IMG/VR virus record: IMGVR_UViG_2806311071_000002
Span: 58,256 to 122,255 of that record
Strand: one strand, 5' to 3'
Source of the DNA: a virus
Lineage: Duplodnaviria > Caudoviricetes
Length of the DNA: 64,000 bases
The notes beneath the pieces are model-generated. The model searched no databases, had not been told where the DNA came from, and saw nothing but the letters and a program-made list of their open reading frames with translations. This document shows, piece by piece, positions 16,313-26,076 of this stretch (position 1 is its first letter; each line of letters begins with the position of its first letter). The translations under genes were made by a program, and so were the position numbers.

Positions 16313-16416
16313 TAGCAACTAAAGGGGAAATTAATCCCCTTTAGAGATGTTATTTGCGTGTACGTTTGCGTTGTCTCTTTGGTCGGAGACGCTTGCGTAT
16401 ACGCTTTATTTTTTTG
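16313..16416 (+). ncRNA. SR6-like antisense antitoxin RNA (approximate ends)
   Basis: Plus-strand promoter TTTACA-16-TATAAT (16280-16307), then a hairpin, then a GCGTGTACG/CGTATACGC stem with a T run, antisense to the yonT 3' end. Confidence 0.7.
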
Positions 16417-19652: not shown

Positions 19653-22172
19653 TTGAAAAGAAAAAAAGATGGATTGTCTAAGCAAGTTCACATATACAGC
19701 GTAGACACATCAGCATTTTATAATGACAAAGAAAATTCATTACATAATAAGATTTTGAAGTCTTATAGATACAGAGATTATCTTAAAACATTAGACAATG
19801 TAAATAATAAACATAAGAAATACATATCACATAGAATTACATACCTTAAAGAGTGCCTCTATTCTGCATTCGAAGAACATAATGACATAAGAACACTTCG
19901 AACTGACAGTTTAAGGGATAATAAAGTAATTTCTTTATTTGATTCAGTGTTGACCCGTACATTAGGGATTAAAGAAAATACCCTTTCAGAGGAAATCATG
20001 GTTGTACAAACTTATCATTTTGAAGTATTGAAAGACATTATTGACAAAGGATTTTTACATAACAATGAGAAATACGTTTATTTCACAAGCAGTGCCGGTC
20101 AAATTCGCACAAAGAAGTCATGTTTCATAAAAAAAAGCACTTACGATAAGTATCAGGATGCTTTGACCTGTGGCTTGAGAATTGAAAAGATTAATTCCCT
20201 TGGTGGGAGCAGCATTAACAAATGGAATAGCTATATGGCCTTATCTAACAGCGCCAGTAGCCCTTGGGAGATCGATATTGATAAAGCAATTGTTGTTAAC
20301 GACCTAGAAACGGATGTATCAAGCCTTGTTGACTATATTGACCGAGACACCTACGAAATCACACGAAAAACAATGAACATTCCCATTGAGCATACAGATG
20401 GCTGCGGAATGATACTCCCCACTCTAAGTCGTAAAAGCTTCATGGTAAGGCTCCCGTGGGTAAAGGGTTTATTAGTCCCTTTTGATTTTCGTAAATTTGC
20501 TGAGGAAAACAAAGCTTTTAAAGTAACTGATATATACGGCAAGGAATGGGACGTAGTGAAAGATGATGTTCAAATTATCTTCACTAAAAGCCAGTTTAAA
20601 ATGTGGAAGTATTATTCATCGTGGGAAGAATATCAAGATAATTATAAAAAATATGGATGCTTAGGGGCAAAACTCAACGAAGAAGACCCTTCTGTTGAAG
20701 GTAAGCTCACTTATCAAATGCTCCAGACACTTACAGATATCTCCGATGAAGAATTAATTCAAATGAGCTCAAAGACTGTAAAAGAGATTACCACATTGGG
20801 AACTGACAAAGAAACCATGTTAAGAGTTCTTGGAGCTACGGAGAAAAAGAAACATCGGACAACTCTTCAGGACGCTTTACTTCTATATCCAGAACTTCTT
20901 AACGATGATCACACGAAAGAAATTATTAAAAATAAAAAGAAAAGCATGATTAAAGATGCCAAATCAGGAAAATTGCTTGTTGATGGTGCTCGTTATACAT
21001 ACTTATGCCCTGATCTATATGCTTTCTGCGAAAAATTATTTCTGAATATCCAGAATCCAAAAGGAATGCTTTCAGGAAGTGATGTCCATTGTTCTTTATA
21101 TGATGAAGGGTATATTGACATCCTCCGCTCCCCTCACCTATTCAGAGAGCATGGTGTTAGGTGGAACAAAAAAGATGAGAAATATGAAAAGTGGTTCATT
21201 ACCCCAGGTGTTTACACAAGCATTCATGATCCGATATCTAAGTTGCTGCAGTTTGATAATGACGGGGATAAGGCCTTAATTATTTCTGATGAGTTAATCG
21301 TCAATATTGCCAAGCGTAATATGGAGAACATCGTTCCTTTGTATTATGAAATGTCAGTAGCCCAGAAACAAGAGATTAATAGCAGGAACATCTATGAAGC
21401 ACTAACCCTTGCTTACGGAATCAATATCGGGGAGTACAGTAACAACATCACTAAGATATGGAACAGTGACAATATAAACCTGGACGTGATCAAATGGTTA
21501 TGCATGGAAAATAACTTTACTATTGATTTTGCAAAAACCTTGTTCATGCCTACCCGTCCTGATCATGTTGATGAAAAAATCAAAGATTACATAAAAAATA
21601 AAGTCCCCCACTTCTTCATCAACGCAAAGGATAAAGAAGAACATAGCGTTGAGTTTATTAATGAAAGCACAGTAAATAAGTTAGACTGCATTATCCCTTC
21701 TGACCGAATTAATTTCGCAGCTGTTGCAGGAAAGTTCGATTATCGCTTCCTACTCAAGAACAAGGATATTAAATTGGACGATGCAATTATTCGTGAATAT
21801 AAACGATTAGACCAGAACAAGAAATGGCTCATGAATGATGAGGACATTAAGCCTGGACAAAAACTTTATGTTTATAAGGTTATCAAAGACAGATTGTTGA
21901 AAATCCATAATGACGAGCAATATGTTGCTGATGTTTTAGCAAAGTACCTATATAAAAAGAAAAGCAAATTTAAATCAACATTATGGGAGTGCTTTGGTGA
22001 GATTCTATTAAATAACTTAGCAATAAACTTAAAGAACAGGAAGGTATGTTTAAGCTGCTTGAAACCTATAAGCAATAAAGGAAACAAGAAAAAATACTGT
22101 ACAAAATGTTTAAATGAACGAGAAAAGATAAGAAAAAGAGAATGGAAGAGAAAACAACTGGTAGCGAAATAG
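19653..22172 (+). CDS. yonO: Single-polypeptide DNA-dependent RNA polymerase for late genes
   Basis: 839 aa; HTDGCG, RSPH and catalytic FDNDGD motifs. Confidence 0.93.
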
Positions 22173-22424
22173 AAAGTGCCCTGAGCCTTACTCCCCCAAG
22201 GGGTACAGCGATTTTACCAGAAAAAGTTTAACGAAAAAAGCGCCTTGAACCCTTGATATGACTGGTCTGAAAGCCCCTTTTGAGATAATCGCCATAAGGG
22301 AGAAAGAAAGCTAATTTCCACATATAAGGGTGAGTACGTCTCCCGTTTTTCAAAAGAAGCACAAACGTTACCGTAATTTTACTTTAACACAAAAATAAAC
22401 AATATCACTAGGAGGAATTAAAAC

Positions 22425-22700
22425 ATGAACAAAACAGAATTTGTTGGAGAAGTTGCAGAAAAATTAGGAGTTACTAAGAAAGAAGCTGCACCTAAAGTGG
22501 AAGCAGTATTTAATGTCATCATTGAAGCACTAACAAAAGGTGAATCAATCAAGATTCCAGGAGTTGGAACGTTTGAAGTTCGTGAACGTGCAGCTCGTAA
22601 AGGGAGAAATCCGCAATCGGGTGAGGAAATTGATATTCCAGCTACAAAGGCACCTGCCTTCAAGGCTGCTAAAGCACTAAAAGACGCAGTGAAAGCTTAA
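22425..22700 (+). CDS. yonN: HU-like DNA-binding protein
   Basis: MNKTE...GTFEVRERAARKGRNPQSGEEIDIPA HU signature. Confidence 0.95.
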   Translation: MNKTEFVGEVAEKLGVTKKEAAPKVEAVFNVIIEALTKGESIKIPGVGTFEVRERAARKGRNPQSGEEIDIPATKAPAFKAAKALKDAVKA

Positions 22701-22726
22701 TGTAGCATCTTCCTCCCTTTTCCCTA

Positions 22727-22866
22727 GAATGCGGTGGCGAAAAAGGTAAACGCGTAGATCGAGGTGGTATGACTAACCTTCGGGAATCTCGAGGCCAACC
22801 TTCAAGAGAAGACTAATAGTTGGCGAATTGTCATCCATGAGAGGTGCAAATCCTCTCCCGCATTCA
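22727..22866 (+). ncRNA. tRNA-like RNA with acceptor, D and T arms but an ~85-nt multibranch insert in place of the anticodon arm
   Basis: GAATGCGG/CCGCATTC stem, GCG-AAAAAGGTAAA-CGC D-arm, GAGAGG-TGCAAAT-CCTCTC T-arm. Confidence 0.6.
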
Positions 22867-22889
22867 TCTCCAGGTTTATTAATTAGAGT

Positions 22890-23760
22890 TCTTTTATTGA
22901 TGGCATGGGGGTGTCGTCAATAATAAGCTGATTACTGATATGTGGGATATCAGTTCTCGGCTAATATTCATTTGTTTGAGGACTTGGAATGCTGGAGCTT
23001 CGGACAAGTGGATATTAGCGGGGTATTGCCCCTTCGTGGATTAAGCTTTTTCTAAACATGTCTATTCTCACTTTCTAACGAACAAAAGCATTAAATTCGA
23101 CTTTACAGCTACAACTGGTCATTGTGGTTAGTCGGATAATGGTCATTTATGAGGGTTCGAGGTTAACTTGGATGTCTGTATCTTAAAGAGACAGGTAATT
23201 GGCTATTATCGGGCTAAACATGCCGATAAGACTTAGCGCATTAATGCAACGACTGAATCCCATCAGGGTCTTATTATGGGTGGCATGTGACCTGAATATT
23301 AATTGCGGTGTATTGCTTCGGCTTGCACTTAGGTAAGGAAGATGCGTCTCCCTTCCCTTTAAATAATGCCCTTGTAAGCTTTGATGCTTATTATGCGGCC
23401 ACATAAAAATTTTCCGGGTTAGCGAGTCTTCTATACTCGTAAAATAAGTGAGATGGAGGTTTGGGCGCTTGATCACCGCCCCCATTTCACAGAAAAGGAT
23501 TATTTTCGGTCTTACCTTTTCAACTTCACTTAGCAACACATTCGCTATTTATTCACTTCATCTCCTTCAATGTTCTGAATGGAGACTTACCTTTCCCAAT
23601 GCACATACCTCCTTACACGGGTCAGAGAAAACTGTGCAAAATAAATGACGAGCGTTTGAGACGCTTTGTTTCTCAATAAGGCGTGTAACCTGACAAGAGC
23701 ATTAAAAATGCCATTGAGAAGGCTTATTAGGGTCTTCCCTTCTCAAATTTTTCCTTGGCT
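22890..23760 (+). ncRNA. Large structured non-coding RNA or cluster of RNAs
   Basis: Consecutive long stems whose mismatches are mostly G.U-compatible on the plus strand; no credible ORF. Confidence 0.55.
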
Positions 23761-23782
23761 CTCAGACTCTAAGGGCTGAGCA

Positions 23783-23865
23783 GTTGGCAAGCAACATAAA
23801 AACTTGATACATTTTCCAGACTACGAGAGCCGGACGTTGGCAAGCAACATAAAAACTTGATACAT
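23783..23865 (+). repeat. Two identical 30-nt direct repeats GTTGGCAAGCAACATAAAAACTTGATACAT with 53-nt period
   Basis: Copies at 23783-23812 and 23836-23865. Confidence 0.95.
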
Positions 23866-24185
23866 AAGATGTAAAGGTAATAGGAACTTTTAACACATTC
23901 CAGAAAGCGTGTATTATTTGTTGTCATAGCTCATCTGCCAGGTGTAGAAGGAGCCAGCTGGATTTCAAACAGCGATAACCAGCCTTTTATGCTCATGTAC
24001 CATGATGTACAAGGAGTTCCTGAAGACGTTATTATGGCGTCTTTTGTTATTTTCGACTTACAAAGATTTCGATCGATGAACCTGTAATCAGCGTATTCCC
24101 TGTCGATTTTGCGTACCTACGTGGGTTAATGAATAATATTTAAGGAAACGCTAATTTCGTATAATTTTCAAGGGAGGACGAAAAG

Positions 24186-24416
24186 ATGGACACAAACATT
24201 CGCGTTAAAGTTATGTATGATGACACGGTATATAATAAGTGGGGCGAGATTATTAATGAAACTTATGCCGGCGAGATTATCGATGCTATCCTTAACGAAG
24301 ACACAGAAGAATATTTTGGAAAAGATCATGGAGGTCGCGAAGTATTTGTCGCATCTCTCGACATGTACGGTAAGCTCGTACTAGAGCCTGGATTTAAATT
24401 AGTAGACGACAAATAA
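24186..24416 (+). CDS. Hypothetical acidic protein
   Basis: GGGAGG RBS, upstream TATAAT and a downstream hairpin/terminator. Confidence 0.7.
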   Translation: MDTNIRVKVMYDDTVYNKWGEIINETYAGEIIDAILNEDTEEYFGKDHGGREVFVASLDMYGKLVLEPGFKLVDDK

Positions 24417-24876: not shown

Positions 24877-26076
24877 ATGACAGCTATTTTAGATCCTGTT
24901 TTGCATCGTGAAAAAGACGAATCATTTACTGATTATCATATTAGACTTTTCAAAAACAAAGACACTTATCACATTGACACAAAAACAATTGCATCCCTTT
25001 TAAATAAGGATCAAGGAACCAACTATGATGAAAGCAAATGGCGTAAAGACTTTAAACAGTATGAACGCTGGCACGATTACTTCATCTCAAAGAATATGAA
25101 CAAAGAAGTTCAACAAAAACATGAAGAAATTCGCATTGAAACCGAAAAACAAACAATCAAAGCACGAGATCAAAAAAGAGAATACCGCAAGTTCATTGCC
25201 AATCAAGCACGATTTGAAAAAATTAAAGATGATGTTGTTCAAGCTATTGCATCTCTAGAGTCAAAAAGACCCCTTCGCTTCACCTTCCCATCACCTGCTA
25301 TTACTGAAAAACATGGACTTGCTCTATTCAGTGATTGGCACTTCGGAATGGAAATTGACAACCGCATTAATAAATTCAATAAAGAAATCTTTAATGAGCG
25401 TGTAGAACATCTCACCAACAAAGTGATTGAGTATGGTAAGCAGAATCACATTTCCACACTTCATGTAGCAAATCTCGGTGATTTAATCGGAGGCCTAATT
25501 CATGTGTCTACAAGAGTTCAGGCCAATGAAGATGCTGTAGAACAAATTAAATATGTATCTGAAACGCTTGCTGAGGTGTTAGCTATGTTGGCTAGTGAGT
25601 TTCAAGAGGTTAAGTTCTATAACGTTGCAGGCAATCACGGTCGCCTCTCCCCTTCTAAGAATGATGTGGGGATCAAAGAAAACTTTGAATACCTCATTAA
25701 TTGGTATCTTGAAGCCAGATTGAAGAATATAAAGAACATCTCAATTGAACCTGAGCAAGACGGATTCATCCCCGCTAAAATCAACAATCAGGAAGTCGTG
25801 TTTGTGCACGGCCACTACGATCGTGTTGATCAGTGTGTAACACGATTGCCCCAATTACTTGGTTACATCCCTTCTTACATATTCGGCGGTCATATTCATC
25901 ACAATTATGAAAAAGAGTATGGCAGCACAACAGTTGTAGTAAATGGAGCGCTTGTCGGTGCGGATGATTATGCTATGCAAGGTCGGTTCGGAACAAAACC
26001 TTCTCAAAAATTTATGGTTTTTGATGATGCTGGTATTGAGGCTACATACATAATTCGCTTTAAAAATGAAAAGTAA
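24877..26076 (+). CDS. yonJ: Calcineurin-like metallophosphoesterase
   Basis: SDWH, LGDL, GNHG, VHGH and GHIHH motifs. Confidence 0.85.
   Translation: MTAILDPVLHREKDESFTDYHIRLFKNKDTYHIDTKTIASLLNKDQGTNYDESKWRKDFKQYERWHDYFISKNMNKEVQQKHEEIRIETEKQTIKARDQKREYRKFIANQARFEKIKDDVVQAIASLESKRPLRFTFPSPAITEKHGLALFSDWHFGMEIDNRINKFNKEIFNERVEHLTNKVIEYGKQNHISTLHVANLGDLIGGLIHVSTRVQANEDAVEQIKYVSETLAEVLAMLASEFQEVKFYNVAGNHGRLSPSKNDVGIKENFEYLINWYLEARLKNIKNISIEPEQDGFIPAKINNQEVVFVHGHYDRVDQCVTRLPQLLGYIPSYIFGGHIHHNYEKEYGSTTVVVNGALVGADDYAMQGRFGTKPSQKFMVFDDAGIEATYIIRFKNEK

Follow-up and report, generated by a model that had tools for sequence, protein, structure and literature searches.

Two tandem 53-nt units in an SPbeta-like provirus belong to a structured RNA family that, in bacteria and on plasmids, stands directly before genes for PBECR4, a predicted nuclease that the provirus itself lacks. 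We favor the reading that these repeats are an orphan antitoxin mimic directed against PBECR4, to which we assign a probability of roughly 0.55. This decoy antidote reading follows from the units being toxin-less copies of the RNA that stands before PBECR4 elsewhere, and its supports include a covariance model trained on PBECR4-linked units, the gene content of the provirus, and compensatory base changes across the wider family.

The repeat locus and its two units

The window, by which we mean the whole 64,000-nt stretch of DNA that was analyzed, is part of an SPbeta-like provirus whose IMG/VR record is 122 kb long and 95% complete. The two-repeat module lies between yonN and yonK of this provirus, in a gap of 1.5 kb, and a Pfam search of the ORFs within the gap gave no match. 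The features of the region are given below in window coordinates, with the basis for each assignment in parentheses.

19653 to 22172, + strand: yonO-like single-chain RNA polymerase gene, an 839-aa ORF (synteny with yonO of SPBc2 and of the B. subtilis SH1 record)
22425 to 22700, + strand: yonN-like HU gene, the upstream neighbor (Pfam Bac_DNA_binding, 1.6e-33; annotation of relatives)
23115 to 24054, + strand: predicted non-coding RNA of ~930 nt, upstream of the late operon (SPbeta conservation and terminator)
23745 to 23926, + strand: exchangeable cassette of the non-coding RNA (alignment of SPbeta-like loci, four types at the slot)
23761 to 23780, + strand: unit 1 hairpin, stem CTCAG/CTGAG, loop ACTCTAAGGG (stem 23761-65 with 23776-80)
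23783 to 23812, + strand: unit 1 core, comprising stem 1 GTTG/CAAC, address loop G-CAAG, linker ATAAAAA, tail CTTG, and ATACAT (exact repeat)
23815 to 23834, + strand: unit 2 hairpin TCCAG/CCGGA, loop ACTACGAGAG (stem 23815-19 with 23830-34)
23836 to 23865, + strand: unit 2 core, with the same letters as the unit 1 core (exact repeat)
24186 to 24416, + strand: yonK-position ORF, first gene of the late operon, without a Pfam match (place of YonK family genes in relatives)
24877 to 26076: yonJ (ORFs and relatives)

By homology with SPbeta, the repeats are predicted to lie inside the ~930-nt plus-strand RNA, a placement based on where conservation starts and where the terminator stands. SPbeta conservation begins at about 23115 (position 1502 of the SPBc2 locus, L001, corresponds to window 23116), and an intrinsic terminator, consisting of a stem at 24022 to 24044 plus a T run, ends the RNA, which has a fold z score of -2.8. 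In SPbeta, the phage polymerase YonO makes the corresponding RNA ahead of the late operon (Forrest et al., PMC5467207), and a YonO-dependent start upstream of the RNA has been published at position 2225998 of strain 168 (PMC5467207). Two published primers were placed on L001, at 1402 to 1425 and at about 1618 to 1644, and in window coordinates the YonO start is bracketed by these two primers only. The cassette that holds the repeats is flanked by a conserved 5' hairpin, GAGAAGG...CCTTCTC, which ends at 23744, and by a conserved 3' part, TAGCTCATCTGCC...

In SPBc2, which is without units, the 5' domain of the RNA (L001 1628 to 1645) has CTCAAGTTTTTTATGTAG, a near reverse complement of the unit's ACATAAAAACTTG. 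This site is the annealing place of the published primer-extension primer, and the window has a different hairpin there. Elsewhere in the window, Rfam at gathering scores gave a single match, the SR6 antitoxin RNA at 16316 to 16415 (+ strand; RF02892, 84 bits), a type I antitoxin belonging to the yonT/SR6 module of SPbeta.

The original prediction described two identical 30-mers in tandem, each able to fold as a compact H-type pseudoknot, and its account of the parts was borne out. There are exactly two occurrences of GTTGGCAAGCAACATAAAAACTTGATACAT, at 23783 to 23812 and 23836 to 23865, and their starts are 53 nt apart. With up to 3 mismatches allowed, the window contains 2 matches to the 24-nt core compared to 0.00 expected from 100 shuffles. 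Stem 1 (GTTG/CAAC) is present in both copies (23783-86 with 23792-95; 23836-39 with 23845-48), followed by a 1-nt G and by CAAG (23788-91; 23841-44), which can pair with CTTG (23803-06; 23856-59), and both units have the A-rich linker ATAAAAA. Each core is also preceded by a hairpin, as proposed; the CAGACT motif ascribed to that hairpin did not hold up as the conserved element, which is a loop start of GAC(U), because relatives read CGGACT or GGAC. The unit 2 hairpin of the window contains one A·C mismatch, and the related phage loci L012, L017, and L020 have a perfect TCCGG/CCGGA.

Tandem Repeats Finder does not report the unit pair because half of each unit differs. Neither the 121-nt stretch (z about -0.5) nor a single unit has a better folding energy than shuffled sequences; the structural evidence is therefore comparative rather than energetic. 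The minimum-energy fold of the two-unit form includes a competing helix, GGCUCUC (23758-64) with GAGAGCC (23826-32), which encloses unit 1 and joins the foot of hairpin 1 to the loop of hairpin 2. The changes found in L012 and L017 keep or extend this helix.

An RNA family that stands before PBECR4 genes

To gauge how far the unit extends beyond SPbeta phages, a 24-nt core pattern, GTTGNCNNGCAACATAAAAACTTG, was scanned over one genome per prokaryote species. Outside SPbeta phages, four matches were retrieved: Sporosarcina, Filifactor (a clostridial genus), an Aneurinibacillus plasmid, and a Bacilli MAG. A scan of IMG/VR with the core pattern added one large phage, and an earlier pattern joining the core to the downstream flank of the phage had no match in the genome collection. 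Outside SPbeta phages, arrays consist of 2 to 4 units. Immediately downstream of three of the four bacterial matches (Sporosarcina, Filifactor, and the MAG) lies a stand-alone PBECR4 gene (PF18813, E about 1e-18 to 1e-31), and Filifactor has three arrays and two PBECR4 genes in a row. An array with PBECR4 directly behind it was also found at loci L098, L093, L094, and L121. At L121 (432 to 982), the PBECR4 gene behind the three-unit array seems split: its C-terminal part lies in an ORF at 530 to 982, and an ATG with a ribosome-binding site at 432 is in another frame than that ORF.

Covariance model R1 detected the RNA before PBECR4 on plasmids of Bacillus sp. FDAARGOS_235, Priestia megaterium, and Enterococcus faecium. 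PBECR4 itself occurs in 25 of 401 Bacilli genomes, either within giant polyvalent proteins or as small stand-alone genes, and R1 found the RNA before stand-alone copies only. The gene is carried by 76 Enterococcus plasmid records, and on plasmids it adjoins superinfection-exclusion and integrase genes. Among the genomes and plasmids surveyed, no PBECR4-plus-array locus was found in a Bacillus subtilis-group genome; the Bacillaceae carriers seen are the Bacillus sp. FDAARGOS_235 and Priestia plasmids. A DNA search for yonO across the 401 Bacilli genomes gave two distant matches, whose genera (6 and 37 genomes) are without PBECR4 and are not subtilis-group-like.

We also surveyed metagenome contigs starting from the RNA, which gave more than 120 contigs among the matches listed and 103 arrays with at least 700 nt downstream. 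A PBECR4 ORF stands directly behind the array in 55 of these 103 (among the matches listed). Another 37 arrays, again among the matches listed, are true members by the model and PBECR4-less orphans, and they adjoin assorted mobile-element genes, such as those for KilA-N, NikA, BrnA, and a sigma factor. Since ~40% of the true metagenome arrays (among the matches listed) are without an adjacent PBECR4, the RNA may have a role of its own. Orphan arrays were also seen on sequenced plasmids. Bacillus thuringiensis YBT-020 has a stand-alone PBECR4 gene on pBMB26 (L116), with no such RNA in the 160-nt gap upstream, and a two-unit orphan array on a second plasmid, pBMB28 (L243 1486 to 1592). On Kurthia sp. 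plasmid pYJ4A (L245 1429 to 1581), an orphan array lies just 3' of a gene annotated as "Abi family protein," on the same strand.

Read by eye in the sequences, the bacterial loci share a layout in which a promoter-like site precedes the array and a terminator hairpin separates the array from the PBECR4 ORF. [quoted passage not shown] Rfam searches of the bacterial array loci gave no family that matches the arrays; the unit is a widespread RNA class absent from Rfam.

Membership of the window units in this class was assessed with a second covariance model, R2, which was trained on PBECR4-linked units only. R2 scored 60.4 bits at 23808 to 23863 (E 4e-17) and 46.9 bits at 23761 to 23807; neither strand of the 64 kb gave a further match, and SPbeta gave none at all. 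By BLAST, the window cassette and the Sporosarcina array are 89% identical over 74 nt, and both are 53-nt spaced, which is comparable to the spacing in the Sporosarcina, MAG, and Filifactor arrays (51 to 57 nt). All parts of the anatomy typical of the PBECR4-associated RNA, together with its ~53-nt period, are present in both window units. As judged by these sequence comparisons, the window units are members of the PBECR4-associated RNA family.

The provirus has the RNA without the gene. PBECR4 is absent from the whole 122-kb record at E values up to 1, and ToxN (PF13958) is absent from it as well, in agreement with the earlier statement that no ToxN-like gene is adjacent. The gene that follows the units is the yonK-position ORF rather than PBECR4, so that the toxin gene of a type III locus is missing here, and a tblastn search found PBECR4 in none of the Bacillus phages of our phage collection. 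The window units are thus phage-borne homologues, without a toxin, of repeats with a presumed antitoxin role in bacteria. The original prediction that the phage has an orphan version of pseudoknot antitoxin repeats is partly borne out: homology to the PBECR4-linked arrays gives it strong comparative support, and the antitoxin status of those arrays is a deduction from locus layout. A second phage lineage carries the unit in another setting: in large phages of ~153 kb, it lies in a tRNA array, between tRNA-His and tRNA-Thr, and the flanking tRNA genes match those of Bacillus cereus-group phages. One of these records, L073, is a complete large-phage record and has no PBECR4.

Pfam places PBECR4 among the Barnase-EndoU-ColicinE5/D-RelE (BECR) nucleases. 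An AF2 model of the protein (pLDDT 81.7) retrieved nothing from the PDB by Foldseek at E values up to 0.001, and a wider search gave weak matches only, with Z scores of 2.2 to 3.3, to colicin D tRNase, BrnT, CdiA-CT, RelE, and HigB. In the literature searched, the name PBECR4 appears only in an unrelated context. Other PBECR4 subfamilies have different repeated RNAs, with a terminator, in the same upstream position. Directly upstream of other stand-alone PBECR4 genes we observed the Rfam motifs Bacilli-1 (above the Rfam threshold) and drum (below it), and a skipping-rope RNA closely follows the stop codon of a further stand-alone PBECR4 gene; the motifs beside these other genes are at L114 1311 to 1375, L110 1319 to 1377, L097 1348 to 1444, and L102 2039 to 2120. 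For drum, Weinberg et al. (2017) noted a "compelling association" with a nearby protein (PMC5737381).

Covariation and variation among phages

The structural alignment comprises 24 units. In the hairpin, 4 of 5 stem pairs show two-sided changes. Over the whole structure, 92.9% of cells are paired compared to 84% in shuffles (0 of 500 shuffles as high), and pairing falls to 18 to 40% when partners are shifted. The G·U pairs are compatible with plus-strand RNA only. Stem 1 is nearly invariant as GUUG/CAAC; first units, as well as the arrays of L093 and Enterococcus, have GGUG/CACC instead.

For the helix between address loop and tail, at least 6 different compensating pairs were seen inside units, and at least 6 more join one unit to another. 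Within a unit, loop and tail read, for example, CAAG/CUUG, UGAG/CUCA (L073), CGAG/CUCG (E. faecium), CUGG/CCAG (L121), CCAGG/UCUGG (Filifactor array A), or CGGA/UCCG (L093). Longer arrays follow a nested rule, in which loop i is matched by tail n+1-i. Filifactor pairs the first loop with the third tail (GAUUGA/UCAAUC), the first tail with the third loop (UCCG/CGGA), and the second loop with the second tail within the unit. In Sporosarcina, the first loop pairs with the third tail as UGAUUAGG/CCUAAUCA, and a loop-tail pair GAUUAGG/CCUAAUC is among the covarying pairs of the family. A four-unit array from Bacillus sp. pairs loop 1 with tail 4 (GUUAGG/CCUAAC), loop 4 with tail 1 (CAAG/CUUG), loop 2 with tail 3 (CAGG/CCUG), and loop 3 with tail 2 (CGAG/CUCG). 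At L098, loop 1 and tail 4 (GGGUGGG/CCCACC) form an outer pair that spans the whole array, and phi3T and Aneurinibacillus have a swapped pair CAGG/CCUG with CAAG/CUUG. The L098 array (reverse strand, oriented 986 to 1360) has four units before PBECR4, with ~220 nt between units 2 and 3 compared to 51 to 57 nt elsewhere.

Because loops and tails are individually matched in this nested order, the comparison suggests that an unprocessed array would fold as one body. The proposed H-type pseudoknot is accordingly upheld for the family by covariation, with the amendment that pairing is not purely within the unit and is often swapped between units in multi-unit arrays. In the window, both units carry the same address, and the letters present allow a tail to pair equally well with the loop of its own unit or with that of the other; the window units resemble the self-contained "middle" units of bacterial arrays.

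For variation among SPbeta-like phages, the yonN-yonK gap was aligned from phage records and IMG/VR contigs, in which 39 entries keep both anchors (a few contigs are duplicated). Four cassette types occupy the slot.

Type A: the two-repeat-type module with 1, 2, or 3 units, 22 of 39 entries
Type B: the unrelated insert of SPbeta, ~190 nt, 11 of 39 entries
Type C: another insert, ~210 to 224 nt, 3 of 39 entries
Type D: another insert, ~145 to 154 nt, 3 of 39 entries

A comparison of copy number across relatives, which the original prediction had called for, thus shows variation. Most type A phages have one unit (e.g., BUCT083); two units are found in the window, L012, L017, L020/L078, L074, and the B. 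subtilis SH1 "plasmid"; phi3T and its kin have three; and SPbeta and Goe11, with type B, have none. The SH1 "plasmid" (L242, NZ_CP064819.1, 118 kb) has yonO, yonN, yonK, and yonJ along with the two-unit module, which identifies it as the genome of an SPbeta-like phage. The inserts of types B, C, and D (the slots of L001, L023, and L038) are structured and unrelated to the units, and none is like the RNAs before the sampled PBECR4 genes. When cassettes B, C, and D, the entire non-coding RNA, and the stretch from 22701 to 23115 were compared with the PBECR4 loci by local BLAST, only the type A units showed similarity.

Changes within the core are few among SPbeta-like phages: A-to-G changes that keep G·U pairs, the loss of 1 nt from the tail of unit 2 in L012, and one A-to-T change in L017. 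The latter is identical in both L017 copies; that is, copies within one phage change together. Since the core hardly varies within these phages, support for the pseudoknot comes from the wider family rather than from SPbeta-like phages alone. Taken by themselves, SPbeta-like phages would present a lineage-specific duplication without compensatory change, an outcome that the original prediction had named among those counting against it; the wider family does have compensatory changes.

Candidate functions and known systems

As a decoy antidote, the repeats would work as follows. Each unit consists of a 5-bp hairpin, a 4-bp stem with the address loop CAAG, an A-rich linker, and a tail CUUG. The tail pairs with an address loop, and a small pseudoknot results whether the two partners lie in a single unit or in two units that exchange tails. 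The transcript of the phage's own polymerase would carry the units, so that surplus antidote RNA would be supplied during lytic growth. Because the phage polymerase makes this transcript, the supply would continue when host transcription fails, and inhibition of any PBECR4 nuclease encoded by the host or a plasmid would persist. With PBECR4 kept inhibited, abortive infection would not be triggered. This scheme presumes that PBECR4 is a toxin, that the RNA neutralizes it, and that the phage copy would do so in trans. Copies without the toxin are found in two phage lineages and in mobile elements, which fits an antidote against a toxin belonging to another element.

Several observations weigh against the decoy. 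The RNA is part of a late transcript, and a decoy might be expected early. Some second copies look relaxed, as judged from the A·C mismatch in window unit 2 and the tail deletion in L012 unit 2. In addition, the fold matches of PBECR4 are weak, ~40% of metagenome arrays (among the matches listed) are orphans, and no subtilis-group locus was found among the genomes and plasmids surveyed.

The strongest rival, which we nevertheless consider unlikely, is that the units form a peripheral structural or protein-binding domain that serves the leader RNA's own function and is unrelated to PBECR4. Such a domain would be in keeping with the unrelated structured inserts (types B, C, and D) that fill the slot in sister phages, with SPbeta doing without units, and with the ~40% of metagenome arrays (among the matches listed) that have no PBECR4 alongside. 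However, an exchangeable slot is itself typical of accessory or counter-defense cargo, the unit also occurs in an unrelated phage lineage in the different setting of a tRNA array, and its near-identity to PBECR4-linked arrays of distant bacteria points to a shared binding partner.

A broader and more speculative extension of the decoy antidote treats the leader-RNA slot as an exchangeable RNA counter-defense cassette, in which types A, B, C, and D would decoy different RNA-dependent host defenses. Joined with the tRNA-like element just upstream, the slot would, on this same joint reading, constitute an RNA-only anti-defense island. Both formulations are doubtful. The same counter-defense logic would explain the units inside the tRNA arrays of large phages.

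We regard it as improbable that the units are an inert relic of a captured PBECR4-RNA cassette whose nuclease gene was later lost. The small defects of second copies (the A·C mismatch in the window and the L012 tail deletion) are of the kind a relic would accumulate, and the tblastn search of the phage collection found the nuclease in no SPbeta-like phage. A relic would not be expected, on the other hand, to keep a core that is letter-identical in many diverged SPbeta-like phages with differing flanks, or hairpin stems that maintain pairing via compensatory changes; copies within one phage change together, and copy number has risen rather than only fallen.

A role for the element as DNA, in the form of binding sites for phage proteins, a promoter, or a packaging signal, is very unlikely. 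The core does contain an imperfect palindrome, GTTGG...CAAC, and a weak promoter-like match overlaps it. Yet the G·U pairs that are kept would be A·C on the other strand, and covariation between loops and tails that lie tens of bases apart characterizes RNA. The published pac site lies between yonR and yonP, and the YonO start is ~650 nt upstream of the units; the reading of the repeats as a pac site or promoter was rejected on the strength of these positions.

Finally, mimicry of a classical type III antitoxin (ToxI, CptI, TenpI, or antiQ) with a ToxN-family toxin as its target, the kinship that the original prediction had in mind, can be set aside as having next to no likelihood: the resemblance is general (tandem units, a pseudoknot, and an A-rich single strand), Rfam at E values up to 10 over 22100 to 24300 gave chance-level matches only, ToxN is missing from the record, and every linked gene found is PBECR4 rather than ToxN, CptN, TenpN, or AbiQ, so that it is the different partner gene that sets the units apart from ToxI, CptI, and TenpI.

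If the decoy antidote is correct, it has several consequences. The literature searched lists type III systems as three families (ToxIN, CptIN, and TenpIN); PBECR4, a BECR-fold nuclease, would be a fourth kind of toxin among RNA-antitoxin systems, accompanied by a new RNA class. It would also provide a natural, widespread case of a phage disarming such a system by RNA alone, an outcome for which the known examples so far are mainly escape mutants of a single Pectobacterium phage obtained in the laboratory, and would assign a specific function to part of the unexplained non-coding RNA ahead of the SPbeta late operon. The PBECR4-RNA cassette is common on Enterococcus plasmids and may act in plasmid maintenance or phage defense. 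Because sister phages differ in unit number (three in phi3T, one in BUCT083, and none in SPbeta), all pieces are testable in Bacillus subtilis.

Among known structured RNAs, the unit can be likened to the preQ1-I riboswitch (the B. subtilis queC aptamer), with which we take it to share a short stem, an A-rich 3' strand (AUAAAAA), and tail-loop pairing. Unlike preQ1-I, the unit is without an Rfam match and has no queuosine genes nearby, and its loop of only 5 nt leaves no ligand pocket. Like Bacilli-1 (RF02931) and drum (RF02958), the present RNA is a structured RNA with a terminator before PBECR4 genes; neither of those models matches its arrays, however, which makes it a separate class.

The bacterial relatives share with ToxIN, CptIN, and TenpIN a promoter, tandem pseudoknot-forming units, a terminator, and a small predicted RNase gene, and, like those systems, PBECR4-RNA loci are often on plasmids. 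CptI, too, has few repeats (PMC4627078), and the short arrays of the PBECR4-linked RNA resemble it in this respect. They depart from the three families in that the toxin belongs to another fold family and the units of one PBECR4-linked array are not identical.

The closest parallel to the phage copy is Pectobacterium phage PhiTE, which reportedly escapes ToxIN through pseudo-ToxI RNA mimicry. In both cases, a phage has toxin-less repeats of an RNA from the antitoxin position of a bacterial RNase locus, and copy number differs between phage isolates. Here, the partner is the BECR-fold PBECR4 rather than ToxN and the RNA family is unrelated, and, unlike the laboratory escape mutants of PhiTE, copies of the window type are natural and widespread in a group of temperate phages.
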